Below, one piece after another: positions 51,690 through 63,130 of a stretch of 64,000 nucleotides of DNA (position 1 is its first letter; each line of letters opens with the position of its first letter). A program made the position numbers and the translations under genes. Below the pieces are notes generated by a model. It was not told where the DNA came from and made no database searches. It worked only from the letters and a program-made list of their open reading frames with translations. The DNA comes from an uncultured Bacilli bacterium. Its GTDB lineage: Bacteria; Bacillota_I; Bacilli_A; RF39; UBA660. Location: contig CANRFQ010000002.1 of the NCBI GenBank assembly GCA_947629935.1, forward strand, positions 33,638-97,637. The letters are read 5' to 3'.

Positions 51690-51725
51690 AAAATTTATAT
51701 AATATTTTTAGTGGAAGGAATAAAT

Positions 51726-52019
51726 ATGAAAAATAAGTATCAAAGAATGCCTAAAACAGAAAAAAAAGCTCTAGAGCAAAAATTCAAGAAAACAGAATAT
51801 GGTAAAAATTTATTGTATCGTTTAAATAGACTATTAATTATTGGCTTAATAGGAATTGGTTTTTCCATTTTGGAATTTATCGTCGCCATTTTTAATAAAA
51901 AAGATATATTTGATTTCATCGCTGCTACTCTCCTATTAATTATTTCTATTATCTTTATCACAAGTAGCATTAAAACTAAAAATAAACAGCTAAATAATTA
52001 TGCTTTAAAGCAAAAATAA
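51726..52019 (+). CDS. Small two-TM hypothetical protein
   Basis: GGAAGGA RBS; two hydrophobic helices. Confidence 0.7.
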   Translation: MKNKYQRMPKTEKKALEQKFKKTEYGKNLLYRLNRLLIIGLIGIGFSILEFIVAIFNKKDIFDFIAATLLLIISIIFITSSIKTKNKQLNNYALKQK

Positions 52020-52072
52020 AATCCTCCTAAGGATTTTTTAATTTATAAATTTATTTATTCATATATATTATT

Positions 52073-52450
52073 ATGAATAGAACTATCGCTGAAAAATTAA
52101 AAGAAACCGCCATCGAAGATATAATTTGGCTTGTATATCTTTTTATTATTGGTGCCAATTTATATTCGAACTATTTAGAAAGAGACTACATTAAAAATCA
52201 TAATCTCCGAAGTCGAGATTTATTTAGACAAATCAATAAATATGTTCTAATAATTGCTTTTTTCATATATCTATATTTTGTATATCAAAGTTATGGTTCG
52301 GTTCGTAATTTAAAAGCAAATGCCTCGGATAAAAAGGTTTTCTTAACTAATTTAACCTTAATAACGGCCGTCTTATTTTTAATAGCTGGCGGTATCAATA
52401 TTTTTATTCAAAATAATAGTGTTTTTGATGATGAAATAGGCTTAGTATAA
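52073..52450 (+). CDS. Three-TM hypothetical protein
   Basis: 125 aa; near-leaderless start after a CATA-type box. Confidence 0.7.
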   Translation: MNRTIAEKLKETAIEDIIWLVYLFIIGANLYSNYLERDYIKNHNLRSRDLFRQINKYVLIIAFFIYLYFVYQSYGSVRNLKANASDKKVFLTNLTLITAVLFLIAGGINIFIQNNSVFDDEIGLV

Positions 52451-52515
52451 TTTTTTTGCTATTAGAGAATATATGTGATATAATCAAAAAGTGTTACAGA
52501 ATAGAAGGTGCTTCT

Positions 52516-53238
52516 ATGATTAAATTCATAATTGTAGATGATAAAATCGAATTTCAAAATCAACTTAAAAAAATCATTAGAAAAACTATTTTTAATAACG
52601 ATAAAAAAATTGCCATTAATTGTTATGAAAAATACAGCGCTGATTTACAACAAGAAATCAATGATAAATCTCAAAGAAAAGTCTATTTACTCGATATTGA
52701 TTTAGAAACCGAAATATCGGGAATTAACATTGCTTTAAAAATTAGAGAAAAAGATTGGGATAGTGAAATCATTTTTTTAACCTCGCATAGTAATTTTTTT
52801 GAAAAAGTTTATCGAAGTATTTGCAAGGTTTTTGATTTTATTGAAAAATATGACAATATGGAAGAACGTCTTATTAAAGATATCAAAAAAATTATAAATC
52901 AAAAATATGATGTTAAGATGTTTAAATATCAAAATCGACAAATAGATTTACAAATATATTTAAAAGATATTTTATACATTTATCGTGATACGGTTGAACG
53001 AAAACTGGTAATAGTAACAACTAACAATCGTTTTATTATCAATAAAAATATTTCTGATATGTTAAAAGAATTGGATCATAGATTTATTCAAACTCACCGT
53101 TCCTGTATTGCTAACAAAGAGCATATCACATTATTTAAATGGAAAGATGGTTGCTTTACTTTAGATAATAAAAAAGATATTTTTTTACTTTCAAAAAAAT
53201 ATAAAGAACAAATTGAAAAAGAAGATATGATGATTTAA
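52516..53238 (+). CDS. LytTR-family response regulator (AgrA-like), no adjacent kinase
   Basis: IVDD, LLDID, SGI..A..IR, IIFLTSH, FIEK, FIQTHRSCIAN. Confidence 0.92.
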   Translation: MIKFIIVDDKIEFQNQLKKIIRKTIFNNDKKIAINCYEKYSADLQQEINDKSQRKVYLLDIDLETEISGINIALKIREKDWDSEIIFLTSHSNFFEKVYRSICKVFDFIEKYDNMEERLIKDIKKIINQKYDVKMFKYQNRQIDLQIYLKDILYIYRDTVERKLVIVTTNNRFIINKNISDMLKELDHRFIQTHRSCIANKEHITLFKWKDGCFTLDNKKDIFLLSKKYKEQIEKEDMMI

Positions 53239-53618
53239 ATCTTATTATCTTCTTTTTCTTTAAATTGCCTTAAAAGGCTATATAATTTATTTGGTAGAGG
53301 TAAACCTAATATCTGCCAATTTTCTAAAATAGAGAGCCCTTCATTCGCTACAAAAAAGTATATTACGACATTTCTGATTGTTCCCGTAGCACCCATGATT
53401 TTATCCACTATAACTGACAATGAGACAATAACTAGATACCCTATTTTTTTTAGTATTCCTTTTATGCCAATAATACTATCTAAATTTTTATTTTTGAAAG
53501 CCTTAATAAGACCCGTAATAACATCCAGAACAATTACCATTAACAGAGTTTTAAAAGGCATATCTAATTTACCAAAAAATTGGGATATTATAGATAGAAA
53601 AACATCAGTAATTTTCAT
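53235..53618 (-). CDS. Phage holin family 4 / toxin-secretion holin
   Basis: LDVITG, S.IG.KG..KK, FFVANEGLSILEN...LGLPLP. Confidence 0.9.
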   Translation of the reverse strand: MKITDVFLSIISQFFGKLDMPFKTLLMVIVLDVITGLIKAFKNKNLDSIIGIKGILKKIGYLVIVSLSVIVDKIMGATGTIRNVVIYFFVANEGLSILENWQILGLPLPNKLYSLLRQFKEKEDNKI

Positions 53619-53672
53619 TTGAATCCCCTACTATATCTTATTTCAAATAAAAAAATATTAGTGTGCTCAAAA

Positions 53673-53915
53673 CTAATATTTTCTTTTTCTAGTATAATTA
53701 TTTTGATGATTATATTGTTCTACAATCATTTGATAATTAACCCACCCTAAACATTGGCATTCTTGATTATATACTTTATCATAGTGCTCAACATGACAAC
53801 AGCCATTTTGACAATTTAAACAAGTTTTACCACGCATAAATTTTTTTATAATCTCTCTTTCCGCAAGGGGAATATTATAATACTCTATTCTAATATTTAA
53901 ATAATTGCTTTCCAT
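53673..53915 (-). CDS. Small Cys-rich hypothetical protein
   Basis: AGGAGG RBS; CLNCQNGCC...CQC. Confidence 0.65.
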   Translation of the reverse strand: MESNYLNIRIEYYNIPLAEREIIKKFMRGKTCLNCQNGCCHVEHYDKVYNQECQCLGWVNYQMIVEQYNHQNNYTRKRKY

Positions 53916-53981: not shown

Positions 53982-56225
53982 TTAATTTTTCCTTAATTGT
54001 TTAACATTTTCATTATTTTTTAATAAATTTAAAATTTCAGTTTCTTTTTGTTTAATTTCCTCGATAGTTAAATTAAAATAATTGGCTAGCTCTTCATAAT
54101 TATAATCTTCTTGATATTTTAAACGAATAAGCGTTAAATCTTCCGGTGACAAAGCTAATAGTGCTTGTTTCATATTTTGACTAAAGGAATAACTTTCATT
54201 ACTTTCATAATGATTATTCTCATCAGCTATAAAATCTATATTTAGTTTTTCTTTGCTTGTACCTCTATCGCTAAAGTATCTAGCATCATTTAGTGATATA
54301 CTACTATTTTGTTTCTTATATTTTTTTAAATAAGTTCTAAAATAACCCTTTACTGTTAAATCCATAAATTTAATTATTTGACCATAAATATTTAAGTTAG
54401 AGTGACTTATTACTTTTAAAAGATAATATTTAATTTCACTTTCAAAATCTTCAAAATTACTACTGTTAACTTTAATTTCATAATTATTACATAAGGAAAA
54501 TATTGTATTATAAATATATCCCTGTTGCCTTAGTAATATTTCTTTTCTCGAATCATATAATTCGCTTTTGTATATGCCGATTAAATCATATAATTCGAAT
54601 TTTTGGATGTCCATATTAGAATTTTTTAAATTATCAATTAGATAAAAAATATTTTTTATTCTTTTATCAGTAATTATTTTATAATTATCATTGATTTTTT
54701 TATCAGAAAAATACCATATCATATTAATTGCTTGATTATATGAAAAATTCATACCAATTAAATCATTAACTGTTTCCAAATCAATTTTTAAAAAATCACA
54801 TATATCTTTTATATCATTAATGTTATTTATTTTTTTTCCTTTTAACTTATTAAATATTTCATTTATTTTTTCTATTTGCAATCTATTTTCATATTTTTTT
54901 ATGGCTAATTCTATAATTTGTTCCCTATCTAATGAGTCATCTTTAGACTCTATTGTTTTTATTCTTCTCCAAATTGCCAAATAAGGATATCCATTTATAT
55001 CACAAAAATTTGTCAATGATTGATTATGAAAATAATATTTAGTTTTTACGGGAGGATGCTCTAAGTAATAATTAACAATCTGTTTTATTGCTTCATCAAT
55101 TGACATATCAGTATTGCCAGCGTATTCATATAAATATTTGGAAATTACGGTATTATAATTTAAACCAATATTATTACAATATGTTATAAGTGGTGTTTCG
55201 TTATAGTAGTATTTTATAGAAAATTTTTGATAAGATTCAACACATTCATCAATGATTTCTTGTAATGGTTTTTCACTTCTTAATTGCTTTCTTAAAATAG
55301 AACAACGAATCGAACTTGCATTTAAATTATTTTGCTCTGCATAATCTTTCAAAGGAATGCCTTTATAATAATAAACTATTCCATATCTATTTATGGTATT
55401 TATACCTTCATCAATTAAATCATCAATACTTTTAACACTCCCTTTAGCTAATTTTCTTTTTACAAAAGATACTACACTATAATAGGATAAATCATTTTGA
55501 ATACAATACTCTCTTAAGGTTATTCCTTTATATAAATATTTAGGTACAAACGGTTGATACTTTTCCATAATTGCTTCTATAAATTCATCATCGTTTAACC
55601 CTTTAAAATTAGCAGTATTTCTATATCTACTTATATATGTAATTATATTTTTATAATTTAAATTATTTTCAACACAATATTGTTTTAGTGGCATGCCTAA
55701 ATAGTAATATTTATAAATTCCTTTATGTTCCTTAGCTAAATATTGTTCAATCAGTTCTTCATCGGATAATTCTGGATTTTTTTCTTTTTTTCTATTAATG
55801 TATGTTCTAATAGAATTGTAATTTATTTCCGGATGACTTTCACAATAATCTTTTAAAGGTATACCTTTATAAAAAAATTTAAAATTTTTATTAGTAAATT
55901 CTTCCATAGCTAAAATCACTAATTCTTCATTAGAAAGATTTTTATTTTTCTTTTTTAAATTATTTATTCTGGATTGTATAGTTACCATATTAATACCATT
56001 ATCTAAACAATATTGTCTTAAAGATATGCCTTTGTACATATATTTAATAGCACTACCATAAGACTCTATAACCATATCCACAATTTCTTGCTCGGCATAA
56101 TTTTCATATTTTTTATTTTGTTTCTTTTTCCATATTTTTGCTCGAATAGTACTTATGTTAATATTATTATCTTTACAATATTTAGATAAAGGTATGTCTT
56201 TATAAAAATACTTACATTCATGCAT
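53982..56225 (-). CDS. Sigma-70-like protein with eight N-terminal tandem HTH-like repeats
   Basis: 8x KY.YKGIPL..YC..N.LNY..I...I; C-terminal SISLND..DFIADE...ALLALSPED..LIRLKY...NYEELANYFNLT. Confidence 0.8.
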   Translation of the reverse strand: MHECKYFYKDIPLSKYCKDNNINISTIRAKIWKKKQNKKYENYAEQEIVDMVIESYGSAIKYMYKGISLRQYCLDNGINMVTIQSRINNLKKKNKNLSNEELVILAMEEFTNKNFKFFYKGIPLKDYCESHPEINYNSIRTYINRKKEKNPELSDEELIEQYLAKEHKGIYKYYYLGMPLKQYCVENNLNYKNIITYISRYRNTANFKGLNDDEFIEAIMEKYQPFVPKYLYKGITLREYCIQNDLSYYSVVSFVKRKLAKGSVKSIDDLIDEGINTINRYGIVYYYKGIPLKDYAEQNNLNASSIRCSILRKQLRSEKPLQEIIDECVESYQKFSIKYYYNETPLITYCNNIGLNYNTVISKYLYEYAGNTDMSIDEAIKQIVNYYLEHPPVKTKYYFHNQSLTNFCDINGYPYLAIWRRIKTIESKDDSLDREQIIELAIKKYENRLQIEKINEIFNKLKGKKINNINDIKDICDFLKIDLETVNDLIGMNFSYNQAINMIWYFSDKKINDNYKIITDKRIKNIFYLIDNLKNSNMDIQKFELYDLIGIYKSELYDSRKEILLRQQGYIYNTIFSLCNNYEIKVNSSNFEDFESEIKYYLLKVISHSNLNIYGQIIKFMDLTVKGYFRTYLKKYKKQNSSISLNDARYFSDRGTSKEKLNIDFIADENNHYESNESYSFSQNMKQALLALSPEDLTLIRLKYQEDYNYEELANYFNLTIEEIKQKETEILNLLKNNENVKQLRKN

Positions 56226-56463
56226 AACAATCACCAAATTAATTGTACTTTATTATATCATGTATCCATTTTTTTGCAAATAAATCCATGAAAATTTTGG
56301 CTATTTCCATCTCATAATCACACTTATATTTACTATTATTTTTTAAATAGTTAAATCTTACCATAAAAAAAAATCAATCACCGATTGATTCTTATATAAA
56401 ATGTTTAATTACAAATATAATCTCGACAGTATTAACAGTCGTTATTATTTTTAAATTTATAAA

Positions 56464-57828
56464 TCACATGCGCCTGCCACCAGTATTTTGTTCTTCGAGT
56501 GGAATACCATTTATCATTTCTTGAATCATAGTATCTGCTGGTTTACTATGTGGATCAAAATTATTTTTTCTTGCTCTTATACTTTCATTATATTGCAATA
56601 ATTGATTATATATACTTTTATTAAATTCAAAATATGGCGTATTAGCAAGATACGCAATATATTCCATGGTATATGTTCCATCATCATTAAATTTTCTTTC
56701 TGGTCTAACACTAACATTGGGTTTATCAAATTCATCCCAAAATTCGTTTGATAATGATTGAGTATCTGGCTTTGATTGAACGATTGGTTGCTCTACAAGT
56801 GGCTTTTGTTTTTTGTTTACATTATCCATTATAAACTTATTTGCTTGCTCTAAATATGCTACGATTGTTTGTTTTACTTCAACAACTGATTTATAATCTT
56901 GTAAATTATCTATGATTTTTGAATTTATTTCATCATTTTTGGCTCTAACTTTTGATATTTCTTGATTAACTTTTGGTATTTGCATATATGGTTGTATATT
57001 GGCCATTAATATCGTAATTTGATTATCGTATTGTTGTATTTGTTCTTTTAATTGCTCTATTTGTTGTTGTTCTTGAATAGCCACTTGTTCTTCTTGTTTT
57101 ATTTGCTGAATTGCATTAACTATTTCTTGTTCTATTGAATTTAATTTTGCTAAATAGTTGTCTAATCTATCCATGGCTTCTTGGGTAATATTATTTTTTT
57201 GATGATAAAAATAAAGTCTTTCTCTTAATAATTCTTCTCTTCTTGCTTCAAATAAATTTGTATTTTCGGCTATTTTTCTTATATGGTTAAGTTTTTCATT
57301 TATTACTGGTAATTTGCTTTGTATTTCATTGTACCTAGCTTCTTGGATTTGTTGAGCCTTTTTTTGACTTTCCAATTCTCTTTGGAACACTTGTTCTTGC
57401 TGTTTTTTTACTGCTTGCCTATTATTATACTCTTTGATTATTTGCATATCGTCTAGATATTTTTTATGATTTTTTATATCTTGGACTGCTTCTGATAATT
57501 CATGAGGCATTTCTAAGCCTGGGCCAAGACCGTTATTGATTTCTTCAACAATTTTGTTAACTTGCTCTATACTATTTTTATAAGGTATAGAATAAAAACG
57601 ATATACAGCGCTAGTTACTGTAAATAAATCCCCAGCATTTTTATAATATTCATCTTGATAATCTTCAATTATATTTATAGGTTGATCATAGTTTTTGGGT
57701 TTAAAATTAGCTACTGCCTGTGCAATATCATTTACAGTATATCTAAAATGCACCGGCTGTGGGGGATTTTGTAATAAATTATTTAAATATTCTTGAAAAA
57801 CTTTTTCATCATCAAAAGCTTCTTCCAT
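56464..57828 (-). CDS. Gln-rich coiled-coil hypothetical protein
   Basis: GAAAGGTTGGTG RBS before ATG 57828; long heptad-like Q/E/K runs; ends GGRRM. Confidence 0.7.
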   Translation of the reverse strand: MEEAFDDEKVFQEYLNNLLQNPPQPVHFRYTVNDIAQAVANFKPKNYDQPINIIEDYQDEYYKNAGDLFTVTSAVYRFYSIPYKNSIEQVNKIVEEINNGLGPGLEMPHELSEAVQDIKNHKKYLDDMQIIKEYNNRQAVKKQQEQVFQRELESQKKAQQIQEARYNEIQSKLPVINEKLNHIRKIAENTNLFEARREELLRERLYFYHQKNNITQEAMDRLDNYLAKLNSIEQEIVNAIQQIKQEEQVAIQEQQQIEQLKEQIQQYDNQITILMANIQPYMQIPKVNQEISKVRAKNDEINSKIIDNLQDYKSVVEVKQTIVAYLEQANKFIMDNVNKKQKPLVEQPIVQSKPDTQSLSNEFWDEFDKPNVSVRPERKFNDDGTYTMEYIAYLANTPYFEFNKSIYNQLLQYNESIRARKNNFDPHSKPADTMIQEMINGIPLEEQNTGGRRM

Positions 57829-58302
57829 AAGCACCAACCTTTCTAGCACTACTATCTTTTATATTTTTATTATTCTTTTTATTTAGATTAAAAAGCATTT
57901 CTATTTTACTATTACGCTTTTATTATTAGTATTTTTTACTCTGCCACAATAAATATTCGCTTAACCTTTTGACCTCTTTACTTCTCACTACATTAATAGT
58001 ATCATATTTTTCTGTATAAAACTAAAAAGATTTAGTTTAATGAAAATATCTTTACATTATTCAACGATTATTTTATGATAGCGTCTCTACACAAGAACAC
58101 ATATTTTAAACTTATATCCTAACAAATATTAAGATAGAGATTTATTATTTATATTTTGAGTACATGTCTACTCTAATTAATGTTAAAAATATTGCGCAAT
58201 TCTTTTTACTAAATTTATTTTTCAATATCCAACATCTTTTTAGACAAAAAAATAGTTAGTAATAAATCTATTTTCTAACTATAATATATATACTAAAAAT
58301 AC

Positions 58303-59157
58303 TTACCTTCTCATTTTTTTATCATATTCCTCTTTCATTTTACTAAACATATCAATAAAAGATCTATAATCTTCTTCAGAGTTATTTCTATTTATACCAA
58401 GAATTTCATTAGAGCTTATATTAGTATTAAATTTTAGATATTGCTCAAATGCTAGTTCTCCTTTACCTGATAGTATGTTCAGTTTGACTTGAACATATCT
58501 CTGATTTATCATTTGTTCAAATTGAACCATATAGTTATTTTCAGAAATACCATTCTGAATTTCTTTAATTATGAATGGTTTATCAATATTTGCTATCCTA
58601 CCATTTTCTTTTTGCCTATCTTTAACTGGTTGCATAGCTGGTACTTCTAACATTTGATGAATAACTTCTCCAAAAAGTAAATTTTCTAACGTTTCTTTTA
58701 TTTGATTATCAGTAGAATATAATATTGGATTATATGGATCATATTCTAATTCCTCTGGTTCTTCTTGCCTTTCTTCTTTTTGTTCTTCTTGATTATCAGA
58801 ACCACTAATTAATGTAAAAGCAAACATTTCCAATGCTGATAAGGTTTCAGGTGATTCTTTTAATTGTTGCATTTTATATTGCTTGAAGTTTATATCTTTG
58901 CTTAACAATTTTACAAATCCATCATATAAGTCTACTGCTTGATCAACAGAATATGCACCTTTAGTTTCAATAAATTTATTAAAAATTTCTTTTGATCCAT
59001 ATCTTAAAATTTCTTCTAAAACATATATCTGAAGCATAGGCAATTTATATGTATCATTATCATATGCTTCTTGAATATTATTTTTGAATTCTTCATTCGC
59101 ATTATATTCCATTATAAATTCGTAAATTTCATTTGATTGAGTTTCATTAAAATTCAT
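58303..59157 (-). CDS. Hypothetical protein
   Basis: AAGGGGGA RBS, TTGACT/TATAAT promoter; ends KKMRR. Confidence 0.7.
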   Translation of the reverse strand: MNFNETQSNEIYEFIMEYNANEEFKNNIQEAYDNDTYKLPMLQIYVLEEILRYGSKEIFNKFIETKGAYSVDQAVDLYDGFVKLLSKDINFKQYKMQQLKESPETLSALEMFAFTLISGSDNQEEQKEERQEEPEELEYDPYNPILYSTDNQIKETLENLLFGEVIHQMLEVPAMQPVKDRQKENGRIANIDKPFIIKEIQNGISENNYMVQFEQMINQRYVQVKLNILSGKGELAFEQYLKFNTNISSNEILGINRNNSEEDYRSFIDMFSKMKEEYDKKMRR

Positions 59158-59328
59158 ATATATCCCCCTTTTTGTTTAGTTTTGTATTATACACCTTATT
59201 TTTCAAAAGTCAAGTTAATTCTAGATAAAAATAAAAGTAATAATGTTACTAAATTGCTAAAATAAAACTACTCGCAATTTAAATTTGAAAGTAGTTTTTA
59301 GATTATACATAGAATATGTTTCCAAGTT

Positions 59329-59886
59329 TTAATAATGAGTTCTTAATTCATAAATAATAATTTCTTCTTTTTTAATTCCAATTTCTTTATTAAAAAGCGC
59401 AAACTCAACAATTACAACTTTTAAATTATGAAATACTATATAACTATAAATATAATTAAAATGAGGGATTTTGTTTAATAAAGCATTATTAAAAATATCT
59501 GTTTTAATATTAAATTCTGGTTTTGCTAAAGCATCCCTAACTGATGCTTGCGGATCTGTAGTTAATATTGCATAAACTTCATTATTACTTAAAAATTCTA
59601 TTTCACCAACCAATAATTGATTATTTACATAATTTATAGAACTTACATTTATAGTAAATAAATTATAATTTTTTATTTCTTCGAAAACTTTATTAAAATC
59701 AACTTTTAATTTAAATATTCCACTAACCTTAGATTTATCTCTAATAGCATAATATTTAGCAGGATATTGTTCTAAAAATTTTTTAACTTTAGTTTCCTCA
59801 CCACTTTTAAACAGTTGCTCTGGAAATTTATTCAATCCTAAATCATTAATTACTTTAATACTTTGCAATTTATTTTCAATTATCAT
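59329..59886 (-). CDS. Hypothetical protein, possible ATP-grasp-like fold
   Basis: AGGAG RBS; YYAIRDKSK and IVEFALF...IIIYELR resemble ATP-grasp motifs of the PEP-synthase N-terminal type. Confidence 0.55.
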   Translation of the reverse strand: MIIENKLQSIKVINDLGLNKFPEQLFKSGEETKVKKFLEQYPAKYYAIRDKSKVSGIFKLKVDFNKVFEEIKNYNLFTINVSSINYVNNQLLVGEIEFLSNNEVYAILTTDPQASVRDALAKPEFNIKTDIFNNALLNKIPHFNYIYSYIVFHNLKVVIVEFALFNKEIGIKKEEIIIYELRTHY

Positions 59887-59995
59887 AGATATTTTTCTCC
59901 TATATTTACTATAAATAATAGCGTGTTTTTATTATAAAACTTGCTACTCTCAGACAATTATCACCATTTCCAAATCATTTTAAATATAAAGCATT

Positions 59996-60898
59996 TTATT
60001 TTTTTAAAACTCTAATCTTACCTGGAACTTTATTAATCCAATGTTCAATATCAGCTTCCATTTCATCAGTTAAGTAATATACATTTGTATTATTATGATT
60101 TTTAGAGCCATGAAAATCACTTCCTGCACTTACTAATAATCCTTTTTGTTTTGCATAATCATAAAGATGTTTTACTTCTTCATCATTTTCCGGTTCATTA
60201 GAAATTTCTATACCATCAATATATGGTGAGCATAAATCTAATATTTCATCTACGTGTATTCCTTGTGCATACTTATGAGGATGTGCTAAGAATAATTTGC
60301 CACCATTATCGTGTATTATTTTACTTAACACTTCTATTGTAGGCCAAACGATGCTCATATCAACATATAATGGAAAATTACTATCCATAGTACTTAATCG
60401 GTAAAAATCTTTTATACTTGAAATATTGTACTTATCTAAAAAGTTTTTATTTTCATCTGTTGTTTGTAACATTCTAAATACTGCAACATGCGCAAATTCT
60501 TTTTCTGGGTTATATGGAGTCGAATCATTTAATTTTAAATTTAATTCTTTACATATTTCAACTAGTTTGTTATATATTTTAGTTTGTCTTGAAGTTACTG
60601 TTCCATAGCACTCTTTTGCCCATGCCCTAACTTTCTCTAATTCAAATCCATAACATAAAATATCATAAGTCACATCATCAATTATTGTATCAGCTTCCAT
60701 ACCATATACTAAAGTTACATTTTCAACAATCTTATTTAAATCTAGATCTAAATATACATCACAGTTATCATGATCTGTTATAGATAAATAAGATATACCA
60801 TTAGCAAGGCATTCATTAACAAGTTCATTAACATCTAGATTTCCATCTAATGAATATTTTGAATGTGTGTGTAAATTAACTTTACTCATTTTATTCAC
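59996..60898 (-). CDS. PHP-domain phosphoesterase
   Basis: NLHTHSKYSLDG, SITDHD, GME, LAHP, GSDFHG. Confidence 0.92.
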   Translation of the reverse strand: MNKMSKVNLHTHSKYSLDGNLDVNELVNECLANGISYLSITDHDNCDVYLDLDLNKIVENVTLVYGMEADTIIDDVTYDILCYGFELEKVRAWAKECYGTVTSRQTKIYNKLVEICKELNLKLNDSTPYNPEKEFAHVAVFRMLQTTDENKNFLDKYNISSIKDFYRLSTMDSNFPLYVDMSIVWPTIEVLSKIIHDNGGKLFLAHPHKYAQGIHVDEILDLCSPYIDGIEISNEPENDEEVKHLYDYAKQKGLLVSAGSDFHGSKNHNNTNVYYLTDEMEADIEHWINKVPGKIRVLKK

Positions 60899-61059
60899 CT
60901 TTTTCCTTTTATTATTGTCATAAGAACAGTAAGCCTTTTTTGGATTATATAAAGCGTCCTTACATTCTCATTATATATCAATTATTTTTGAAAAAAAAGT
61001 ATTGAACTCTGTCAATCCTCTTAGTAAACTACATAAATATTTACTTATAAAACTTGTAA

Positions 61060-61175
61060 GTTATTCAAATTATCTAATTCAATATATTCCTCATCAGTTA
61101 CTTTTTCTAACTAAACATTTTCAGTTTCTTCACCTGGCACTTCTATTGCTTTATGACTAAACCAAGTTTTATTGA
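61060..61175 (-). pseudogene. Remnant of the C-terminus of a cupin-domain gene
   Basis: Translates TWFSHKAIEVPGEETENV*LEKVTDEEY, matching the cupin tail pattern SWFSHLAIEVPG....EWLEPV.DEEY with TGG>TAG; no 5' part. Confidence 0.65.
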
Positions 61176-61314
61176 TCAAATGACACAACGAAAGTGGCGA
61201 TAGTATTCTTTCTTTTTATTTAAACTTGTTTTAAAGAAAAAAGCAACAATATCACTTACGATTAGTTTAGGATATGTTGCTTAAATGGAATTTCAAAAAT
61301 GGGATTATCCTTTG

Positions 61315-61349
61315 CACACTACTAAGTTGGTTACCAACTTAGTAGTGTG
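61315..61349. repeat. 35-bp near-perfect palindrome
   Basis: CACACTACTAAGTTGGT-T-ACCAACTTAGTAGTGTG. Confidence 0.9.
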
Positions 61350-61428
61350 TTATTACTTAGTTGTTTCAAACTCGGTTTATTACCGAAACTTATTAGTTAC
61401 GAAGTTTTTTTGGATTATTGTTACATGA

Positions 61429-62793
61429 TTAACTATCTATTAATTGTTTTTTTAGGTCAATAATTATTTTATTATTAGTAGCATATTCAATAATTAAATT
61501 TCTATCAAAATTAGTTATTATTAAATTATAATATAAGTCTAAAATTTTATTTATTTTGTTAATATCATGGGTTTTAGAAAGCTTTAATTCTAAATCATTC
61601 AATAATTGGTAAGCGTTTTTTAAAGTACAATCATTATTATATTCTATATTAAGTATTTCATTTTCCTCTATTAAATCTTTTGATAAATACTTATTAAAGA
61701 TAATATTTAAATTTTCTAATTTTTCTTCTCCTTTTTTATATATTGCATTTTTGAACTCTAATTGTTCATTTTTTATTAATTCATCTATATCAATTTTTTC
61801 ATAGTAAAAATAAATATCATTTATATTAATATCAATAAGATATTTTTTTAATTCCTTATGAGCGTTAAGTCTCGCATCTATTTCAATAAACTTATATTTA
61901 TAGTTCTGTTCGTTATACTTAGTACCAATTATTTTTTCTAATAAAGTTTCTTTTTTCATCATGTATGAACTATAATTAATAAAGATAACATCTACAGAAT
62001 CATTTAATACTATTTTATCACCTAAAATATTATTTATTTTAGGATCTTCTCTCATTTTATTATCTATAATATTTATAATTAAATTTGGATCATTAAACTG
62101 TTCGTATAACTGAATTGAATGATATATTTCATGAAATATAGTATCTAATATTTTTATATTTTCATATTCTAGATTTATAACTTGTAATTCGTTTAACTGA
62201 ATTATATTTTTAGATGGTATATACCTCCCTCTTAAATTATTTTTACTTAATACTAAAAATGGGTCGACATGAGCTATTAATTTTTTATTAGTACTAATAT
62301 TTATATCATCAACAAGTTCTCTTTCAGTTATTTCAATTTCTTTATTCATAGTAAAATCTTCAATAACTGTTTCCAATAAGTATATAGATATTTCCCTAAA
62401 TAATTTATTTTTTTCTTCATTTTTAATATATTTAGATAATAACGATTCATCATTTAAATATTTTAAAATATAATTATTACAAGTATTAATATCTAATAAG
62501 CCATTAAAGTATTTACATTTCAAAATTGTATTTAATTCATTTTTTAAATTATTATCTGTAATTAATAAAGGACATTCTGCTAATTTTAATAAAAGTTTAT
62601 CTTTAATTATTTTATATTTCTTATAATCTCTTTTAAAAAGAAAATTAATTAAAAAATTAAATTCAATAGTACAAAACAATATTACATCATTTGAGTTATC
62701 AATTATATTAACAAACTCGTACAAATCATTATCTTCAAACTTTAGCTTATTATAAACATTAAAATATAAATTATTAATTAATAAATTTTTCAT
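61429..62793 (-). CDS. HExxH zincin-like metallopeptidase-domain protein
   Basis: LRGRY....NIIQLN...DTIFHEIYHSIQ...IEIDAR; ATGA overlap with the upstream DUF600-like gene. Confidence 0.65.
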   Translation of the reverse strand: MKNLLINNLYFNVYNKLKFEDNDLYEFVNIIDNSNDVILFCTIEFNFLINFLFKRDYKKYKIIKDKLLLKLAECPLLITDNNLKNELNTILKCKYFNGLLDINTCNNYILKYLNDESLLSKYIKNEEKNKLFREISIYLLETVIEDFTMNKEIEITERELVDDINISTNKKLIAHVDPFLVLSKNNLRGRYIPSKNIIQLNELQVINLEYENIKILDTIFHEIYHSIQLYEQFNDPNLIINIIDNKMREDPKINNILGDKIVLNDSVDVIFINYSSYMMKKETLLEKIIGTKYNEQNYKYKFIEIDARLNAHKELKKYLIDININDIYFYYEKIDIDELIKNEQLEFKNAIYKKGEEKLENLNIIFNKYLSKDLIEENEILNIEYNNDCTLKNAYQLLNDLELKLSKTHDINKINKILDLYYNLIITNFDRNLIIEYATNNKIIIDLKKQLIDS

Positions 62794-63130
62794 TTCATTA
62801 TACCATTTTGTTTTCTCCATTCAGCAATTTCTATTGAATCATATTTAAAATCAATATTAAATTTTCCATCATAATCAATAGTTAATGTCATACATTTCCA
62901 TTCATCGCCAAATGTAGTACAATAATCATATAAATTAAATAATAATTCTTGTAATTCTAAATATTTTTCTTCTTCTATACTATTATTAAATTTTTCATCA
63001 TAAATAAATTCGTTAAAATATATTAACTTATCATCTGAATCTTTATAAAAAAATTCCATATTTTGAATACTAGCATCATTTATTTTATTTATAATTAATC
63101 CTAATATCAATTTTTTGAAATTTCTTCCAT
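62790..63130 (-). pseudogene. DUF600/YezG-type immunity protein, frameshifted at an A-run near its start
   Basis: EWKCMTLTIDYDGKFNIDFKYD signature; ATG at 63130 reads MEEISKN* unless the A6 run is A7. Confidence 0.7.

Follow-up and report, generated by a model that had tools for sequence, protein, structure and literature searches.

A sigma-70-family protein joined to an uncatalogued modular N-terminal array in uncultured Bacilli

Results

A single intact gene with a conserved promoter region

The stretch of DNA analyzed here (hereafter, the window) comprises 64,000 nucleotides (nt) of contig CANRFQ010000002.1, positions 33,638 to 97,637, from assembly GCA_947629935.1 of an uncultured Bacilli bacterium. 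It encodes on its minus strand a protein in which eight tandem modules precede a sigma-70-family core, and we refer to this gene and its product as the repeat-sigma gene and the repeat-sigma protein. The small genome of this gut bacterium amounts to 1.16 Mb in 32 contigs with 21-31% G+C, and the relatives named below are metagenome-assembled genomes (MAGs) of uncultured Bacilli.

The open reading frame (ORF) at 53982..56237 (-) is open throughout and forms one intact frame. Its start is placed at the ATG at 56225, yielding a product of 747 amino acids (aa), and this choice is supported by the database record of an identical 747-aa protein; the alignment of orthologous genes begins at the same ATG. 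Residue numbers given in this report follow the 751-aa reading of the ORF rather than the 747-aa protein. The only upstream sequence common to the orthologues consists of a TGnTATAAT-type -10 element and a GGTGGTG ribosome-binding site, the positions of which align between the window and the four orthologous upstream regions compared. Promoter-like sites as a class are no commoner than in shuffled sequence (49 found versus 48 expected). All 120 close homologues (747-753 aa) among the matches listed keep the frame intact. Measured over 747 codons against orthologues, the ratio of non-synonymous to synonymous substitution rates (dN/dS) is 0.14-0.23, placing the entire protein under purifying selection.

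Eight divergent modules form the N-terminal array

Eight tandem repeats of 54-58 aa each, with a mean pairwise identity of 29%, occupy residues 9-457 and conserve the frame K-Y-x-Y-x-G-x-x-L-x-x-Y-C-x-x-N-x-(I/L)-N-Y-x-x-I-x-x-x-I. Scored with a hidden Markov model (HMM) built from the other seven, each omitted repeat reaches 21.1-58.1 bits, compared to 7.6-9.9 bits for the best of about 200 shuffles per repeat, which bears out the eight repeats that an earlier note, made from the letters of the window alone, had described; all eight strings that it quoted as putative recognition helices are present in the sequence. A degenerate ninth repeat claimed in the same note fared less well: hhalign aligns a repeat to residues 476-496 over a 21-column two-helix core only (probability 25%, P 8e-4), and the repeat HMM finds no significant match past residue 457. 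The repeat period is visible in the DNA too, as direct repeats spaced 165-171 nt. Tandem Repeats Finder reports no long-period array at the repeat region, suggesting that the module duplications are old. The eight modules differ strongly from one another in their second helix, and one cysteine is conserved in seven of the eight, with a conservation of 0.93 across orthologues.

An AlphaFold2 model of the array, covering the first four modules, has a predicted local distance difference test score (pLDDT) of 89 and a predicted TM-score (pTM) of 0.46, a combination that fits confidently folded small domains of uncertain mutual orientation. Each modeled module has two short strands, after which come a helix of 7 residues, a turn, a helix of 13 residues that continues into a basic tail, and a third, acidic helix. 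This splits the charge by face: the totals over the eight modules are +26 for the second helix with its tail and -22 for the third helix, the net charge of the array being +11. Between the array and the core lies an accessory helical domain of about 85 aa (pLDDT 78-97) that is conserved in 86 of the 151 proteins of the family survey described below; structural fold searches with the C-terminal model barely probe this domain.

The C-terminus is a sigma2-sigma4 core

The C-terminus is a sigma-70-family module made up of sigma2, a linker resembling region 3.2, and sigma4. It is devoid of sigma3, as only some 35 low-confidence residues separate sigma2 from sigma4. Pfam Sigma70_r4 (PF04545) matches residues 692-740 with 27.8 bits (cut-off 24.1), TIGR02937 aligns to residues 593-741 with 40.4 bits, 2.5 short of its cut-off of 42.9, and the sigma factor family PHROG 1740 matches the protein as well. 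A profile of 26 family members searched against the PDB retrieves SigF (1l0o_C, E-value 1e-9) and FliA (1rp3_A, E-value 1.6e-9) in collinear alignments that combine a weak sigma2 stretch (8-14 bits) with a stronger sigma4 stretch. phmmer pairs NIDFIADEN in the linker with GDFIPDEN of SigA, so that the DFIADE segment singled out in the earlier note is indeed present and aligns to SigA.

The fold of both domains is recognizable in the AlphaFold2 model of residues 458-751 (pLDDT 84). VIA-align superimposes sigma2 on SigI6 (8i24_F) with a Z score of 10.0 and a root-mean-square deviation (rmsd) of 3.2 Å over 99 residues, followed by pro-sigmaK (8vjl_B, Z 8.9) and region 2 of sigmaE (2mao, Z 8.3), and sigma4 on SigW (5wuq_A) with Z 9.4 and an rmsd of 1.3 Å over 61 residues. 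In total, 21 chains reach Z >= 8, the top rows being sigma2 or sigma4 of solved sigma factors, and sigma chains also occupy the top rows of the Foldseek search with the C-terminal model. When sigma2 was modeled with residues 1-340 of beta-prime from the same genome, the interface score ipSAE was 0.88 (best of three controls, 0.00), a mark reached by 58 of 80 solved complexes and by 2 of 110 mismatched pairs. The three runs had at least 93% of contacts in common, with a partner pLDDT of at least 84, and placed sigma residues 591-611 on residues 240-287 of beta-prime, at the clamp helices. Sigma2 and beta-prime being a textbook pair, the result indicates that the model resembles solved complexes rather than that the two proteins bind. 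Taken together, the region-2 fold, the region-4 helix-turn-helix (HTH), the 3.2-like linker and the predicted docking of sigma2 corroborate the sigma-70-family identity proposed in the earlier note.

The recognition helix of sigma4 lacks positive charge. It reads TIEEIKQ where SigA reads TRERIRQ, a replacement that had been pointed out before and that turns out to be part of a loss of arginine extending across the family: the net charge of the helix averages -0.58 in 59 family members and is zero or negative in 49 of them, versus +5 in SigA and +4 in a SigE/K-like sigma of the host genome.

Table 1. Features of the repeat-sigma gene in the window (residues in the 751-aa numbering)
Feature	Residues	Position in window	Strand	Evidence
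Whole gene: 747 codons and stop; eight-module array, accessory domain, sigma2, linker, sigma4		53982..56225	-	ORF, orthologue alignment, dN/dS
Candidate sigma-A-type promoter: TTTGCA, 17-nt spacer, TATAAT, TG before the -10		56252..56280	-	Pattern scan
Module R1	9-64	56046..56213	-	Leave-one-out 50.3 bits; AlphaFold2
Module R2	65-119	55881..56045	-	Leave-one-out 58.1 bits; AlphaFold2
Module R3	120-175	55713..55880	-	Leave-one-out 58.0 bits; AlphaFold2
Module R4	176-232	55542..55712	-	Leave-one-out 52.7 bits; AlphaFold2
Module R5	233-287	55377..55541	-	Leave-one-out 36.9 bits
Module R6	288-341	55215..55376	-	Leave-one-out 46.2 bits
Module R7, the least basic (net charge -2)	342-399	55041..55214	-	Leave-one-out 27.6 bits
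Module R8, the one retained beside the core by the host genome's one-module paralogue	400-457	54867..55040	-	21.1 bits
Accessory helical domain, with a weak HTH-like two-helix unit at 476-496 (ninth repeat of the earlier note)	458-542	54612..54866	-	AlphaFold2
Sigma2 domain	543-650	54288..54611	-	VIA-align, profile
Linker with 3.2-like NIDFIADEN	651-685	54183..54287	-	AlphaFold2 pLDDT <50; phmmer
Sigma4 domain	686-751	53985..54182	-	Pfam Sigma70_r4; VIA-align
Sigma4 recognition helix	723-740	54018-54071	-	Sequence

Module number varies across the family

An exhaustive search of representative sequences identified 261 clusters at 50% identity (E-value <= 1e-3), and the family survey covered 151 proteins, namely the query and the best 150. 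Fifty-two of them have one or more repeats, the accessory domain and a sigma part that is nearly complete. Their repeat counts, which are lower bounds because the repeat HMM was built from the query protein alone, are one (4 proteins), two (5), three (3), four (13), five (3), six (10), seven (4), eight (9) and nine (1); module number thus varies from one to nine among homologues with a complete sigma part, a variation for which the earlier note had suggested looking. Another 54 of the 151 are arrays only, many of them short fragments from short contigs. The longest arrays contain 11 and 20 repeats, and one 11-repeat protein ends in a weak Sigma70_r4 match. Nearer homologues, as far apart as about 42-46% identity, have corresponding modules in the same order and differ by the absence or duplication of whole modules, as in protein P0123, where R1-R6 are followed directly by R8. 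Across seven orthologues (29-46% identity), conservation is 0.37 in the array, 0.33 in sigma2 and 0.36 in sigma4, which puts the array level with the sigma domains.

The host genome also contains a diverged paralogue with a single module, on contig C9 (locus L035, 1189-2218, minus strand), that is split into two overlapping ORFs. The 254-aa ORF encodes the module, the accessory domain and sigma2, and is 30% identical to residues 405-557, while the 91-aa ORF is sigma4-like (hhalign P 0.0024); the pair may be a gene in two parts or a pseudogene that arose by frameshift. A split, into ORFs of 161 and 560 aa, is also seen in the orthologue of one related MAG (locus L013, 3560-5809) and could reflect a frameshift or an assembly error.

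The gene has the distribution of a bare cassette

Matches to the family profile were found in 241 of the 301 genomes of the order, most of them ordinary sigma factors covering the last 160 profile positions only. Full-length relatives (E-value < 1e-100, frames of 573-767 aa) occur in 11 of the 301 genomes, belonging to several genera. The window copy of the repeat-sigma protein is 72-80% identical to those of five genera; in the same comparison SigA is 71-72% identical, and the M29 aminopeptidase is 41-42% identical in two genomes, gives a weak partial match in one and was not found in two. For the same genome pairs, the synonymous divergence (dS) of the repeat-sigma gene (0.43-0.70) is far below that of SigA (0.98-1.9) and thus suggestive of lateral spread under purifying selection.

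At the nucleotide level, the loci are similar (79-86% in seven of the ten compared) from 35-53 nt ahead of the ATG to within about 10 nt of the stop codon. The flanking genes are unrelated in every orthologous locus compared, and no flanking ORF of six related loci matches the window ORFs from 48-64 kb at an E-value <= 1e-5. The low dS, the confinement of similarity to the gene and the unrelated flanks indicate that a 2.3-kb cassette consisting of nothing but the gene and its own promoter has been transferred laterally from genus to genus. The cassette is not flanked by terminal repeats.

A prophage or other mobile element was considered as the carrier, as suggested by an adjacent holin gene (PF05105), the other neighbors being without PHROG or Pfam family. 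The orthologous loci, however, sit among housekeeping genes (Obg, NUDIX, nucleoside hydrolase). Neither 50,697 phage records nor 72,556 plasmid records yielded a tblastn match, and a scan of viral contigs, whose patterns detect close relatives only, revealed no relative.

Relationship to known sigma factors and DNA-binding modules

The two-domain group 4, or extracytoplasmic function (ECF)-type, sigma factors (SigW, SigI6, sigmaE) have the same core of sigma2, linker and sigma4 without sigma3. The repeat-sigma protein differs from them in its approximately 540 additional N-terminal residues (eight modules and accessory domain), in a sigma4 recognition helix that is not basic, in not reaching the TIGR02937 cut-off and in the absence of an adjoining anti-sigma gene. 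This last difference is a weak criterion since many ECF groups lack an adjacent anti-sigma gene. Group 3 sigma factors (SigF, FliA, SigB) provide the best PDB profile matches and have the DFI.DE 3.2-like motif in common with the repeat-sigma protein, which carries about 35 disordered residues in place of their sigma3. MzaA of the MZA anti-phage system (NCBIfam NF041931, a 726-position model) is likewise a long protein with a C-terminal sigma-70 domain, but the repeat-sigma protein scores 17.8 bits against a cut-off of 800 and aligns over sigma4 only (residues 661-748), so that its assignment to MZA was rejected. Membership of a defense system was also dismissed, PADLOC finding no family in the repeat-sigma protein and weak matches only among its neighbors.

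The nearest conceptual relative is the dCas12f-sigmaE system of RNA-guided transcription in which, reportedly (PMC12259090), sigma targeting is handed over to a separate programmable DNA-binding unit; here, the corresponding unit would be a putatively DNA-reading array fused to the sigma factor itself. A chain of the dCas12f-sigmaE complex (9n9q_C) is among the structural matches, with Z 7.7, and no sequence relation between that system and the repeat-sigma protein was found. Our literature search revealed no account of a sigma factor that carries a series of HTH repeats at its N-terminus, and to that extent the architecture, an uncatalogued N-terminal array of modules joined to a sigma-70-family core, is undescribed.

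As to the module itself, the repeats show no relation to sigma4 (hhalign probability 1%). Their best sequence match in the PDB is the N-terminal HTH domain of MuB (2mqk_A, E-value 0.11), and further sub-threshold hints lead to the HTHs of IS66 TnpA, BcepMu gp16 and the terminase small subunit. The N-terminal HTHs of MuB, BcepMu gp16 and the terminase small subunit, the nearest sequence hints for a single module, are single units rather than members of an array, and a fusion to a sigma factor is seen in none of them. Single repeats searched against PHROG families of phage DNA-binding proteins gave matches only at E-values > 0.01, with the sole exception of a sigma PHROG, and Atlas feature scores for the repeats are at most 0.79, all of them to HTH-type clusters. 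The whole protein is matched by TIGR04111 at an E-value of 1.3e-6, under the cut-off, and phrog_370 is likewise sub-threshold. The DNA-binding appendages of phage homing endonucleases (NUMOD/I-TevI/I-HmuI type), to which the earlier note had compared the repeats, are also strings of small HTH-like modules. Here, the comparison yielded non-significant hints only: an Atlas cluster with a score of 0.78, 60% of whose members carry PF22083; a phage HNH endonuclease in Foldseek (E-value 0.084); and one of 19 repeats matching a homing-endonuclease PHROG (E-value 0.031). Unlike these enzymes, the repeat-sigma protein has no nuclease domain, and Pfam scans of the protein and of 30 arrays revealed no NUMOD family. 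The repeat module itself is an uncatalogued domain family that no Pfam model matches significantly.

Discussion

Sigma factors normally find their promoters with sigma2 and sigma4, and extra domains, where present, are usually regulatory. For the repeat-sigma protein we tentatively favor, with a rough probability of 0.45, an alternative sigma factor whose compact core is fronted by the ~85-aa helical domain and by eight independently folded modules of about 56 aa, putatively DNA-binding, that would supply upstream specificity or affinity. At the level of fold and model, the core is predicted to bind RNA polymerase and to open promoters through sigma2. The sigma4 helix, whose positive charge is lost across the family, would contribute little to the reading of the -35 element; the basic, module-specific faces of the array would bind DNA near the promoter and provide most of the upstream specificity or affinity, and the gain or loss of modules would retune the sites used. 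Basic on one face, module-specific and conserved, the array is an obvious candidate for the upstream DNA contacts, and it is plausible that it reads DNA and sets promoter choice.

Several observations weigh against this proposal. Among the HTH families of Pfam, PHROGs and NCBIfam, none produces a match to the repeats that is consistent or passes the threshold, and the Pfam scan of 30 arrays was inconsistent, with SAP_new25 matching in 10, ScdA_N in 9 and PapB in 8 of the 30. A Foldseek search with the repeat model retrieved nothing in the PDB (best E-value 0.44) or BFVD (best E-value 0.066), and the best VIA-align matches of the repeats, the winged-helix domains of MCM and ORC proteins, have a Z score of 5.5, rated as common by the tool. 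The exposed positions of the second (putative recognition) helix, with a conservation of 0.16-0.41, are no better conserved than background when distant orthologues are compared. On the side of the core, Pfam Sigma70_r2 is unmatched and the support from sequence for region 2 is weak. Finally, no candidate target emerged: the loci compared contain no conserved neighbor genes, and no tandem DNA repeat array was found near the gene. The HTH-like nature attributed to the repeats in the earlier note is weakly supported: the modeled hairpin and three helices agree with it, while the family matches stay below threshold and the structural Z scores do not exceed 5.5. HTH-like is a reasonable reading of the predicted topology and charge, even though membership is not demonstrated in view of the lack of a consistent Pfam, PDB, Foldseek or VIA-align match.

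Other readings differ in how far the array might determine promoter choice. At one extreme, each module would read a short DNA subsite, in the manner of zinc-finger or TALE arrays, and the array rather than sigma4 would define a long composite promoter address that would be rewritten whenever modules (1 to 9, perhaps 11, in the family) are gained, lost or duplicated; we regard so programmable a sigma factor as rather unlikely. To much the same extent improbable, at the other extreme, is a working sigma factor whose array serves as a low-specificity DNA or nucleoid tether of the SAP/HeH type with a preference for AT-rich sequence, raising the local concentration of the protein or stabilizing complexes at weak promoters, with specificity coming from sigma2 and an extended -10 element. 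The commonest of the weak Pfam matches are indeed to two-helix SAP-like families (SAP_new25 and ScdA_N, in the proportions given above), the G+C content of the host genome is low (21-31%), each module has a basic face, and the exposed helix positions are not specially conserved. Interchangeable modules, however, would not be expected to keep their identity and order down to ~42-46% identity of the proteins, nor does a tether of this kind sit well with eight modules that differ strongly in their second helix.

It is also conceivable, if distinctly unlikely, that the array makes no DNA contact at all and binds protein instead, as an in-cis anti-sigma or autoinhibitory domain, a scaffold or a sensor. 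Fused regulatory domains are known in other sigma factors, among them ECF sigmas with C-terminal extensions and primary sigmas with their region 1.1; the missing proof of HTH family membership and the cysteine present in seven of the eight modules, conserved at 0.93 across orthologues, would be compatible with such a role. The array is, however, net basic, unlike the acidic DNA-mimicking region 1.1, no conserved partner gene adjoins the repeat-sigma gene in any locus compared, and the low pTM of the model is suggestive of beads on a string rather than of a packed scaffold. Were the protein not a functional sigma factor at all, be it a sigma-derived transcription factor or the product of a decaying or selfish gene that no longer engages RNA polymerase, the failure of Pfam to detect Sigma70_r2, the acidic recognition helix of sigma4 and the splitting of the shorter paralogue of the same genome into two ORFs would find a ready explanation. 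This we hold to be very improbable, given the dN/dS of 0.14-0.23 over 747 codons, the frame kept intact in all 120 close homologues among the matches listed, the Z score of 10.0 for the sigma2 fold and the location of the modeled beta-prime interface on the canonical helix.

To our knowledge, promoter targeting by a fused modular array has so far been achieved only in engineered systems, or else has involved separate partners as in dCas12f-sigmaE. An alternative sigma factor whose array supplies upstream specificity would, if confirmed, represent a natural case of such targeting. Should the modules prove programmable in the sense discussed above, a 2.3-kb gene with a housekeeping-type promoter would constitute a plug-in regulator capable of installing a new program in a reduced genome. 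It is, in addition, unusual for a sigma factor to pass laterally, as a gene on its own, among gut Bacilli with 1-Mb genomes, and the regulon could show what reduced genomes gain from the repeat-sigma gene.

Genomic neighborhood and additional observations

The stretches 53235-53915 and 51711-53238 hold, directly downstream of the repeat-sigma gene and on the same strand, an 80-aa Cys-rich ORF without family and a holin gene (Phage_holin_4_1, E-value 7.8e-35) and, convergent to them, two small ORFs for membrane proteins together with a LytTR response regulator for which no kinase is apparent close by. The association of a sigma factor with a holin recalls the sigma-plus-holin loci of clostridia; it is not conserved in the orthologous loci. 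Upstream, the region 56464-63110 (-) contains ORFs of 461, 284, 185, 463 and 106 aa without Pfam or PHROG family and, at 59996-60898, a 300-aa ORF with a PHP domain. The orphan 461-aa protein nearest to the gene is Q-rich and coiled-coil-like by eye. It was considered as a conserved partner and rejected, since it occurs in only 2 of the 301 genomes and, in the one other than the host, is not on the contig that carries the sigma gene.

Other sigma factors attracted our attention in the course of this work. Contig C26 of the host genome (locus L036, 65-1548) encodes a 268-aa membrane protein followed by a 230-aa sigma factor, next to a SpoIIGA-like gene. We take the N-terminus of this sigma factor to resemble that of the sporulation pro-sigma E/K proteins, and the occurrence of a SigE/K-like sigma factor beside a SpoIIGA-like gene was unexpected in a genome of 1.16 Mb. 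Most of the 301 related genomes contain sigma factors of about 235 aa. Three related genomes carry second SigA-like genes with 38-48% identity to SigA (loci L038 in G102:C3, L039 in G119:C1 and L040 in G240:C54); their products have N-terminal extensions of about 200 aa, accompanied by C-terminal extensions in two. These long SigA-like paralogues (frames of 407-565 aa in the stretches fetched) are devoid of the repeat module, all HMM matches having an independent E-value (iE) > 0.01.

Elsewhere in the window, an 87-bp tandem repeat (34587-35388; 9.3 copies, 85% matches) lies inside the ORF 34743-35882 (-), where it would encode a 29-aa protein repeat.

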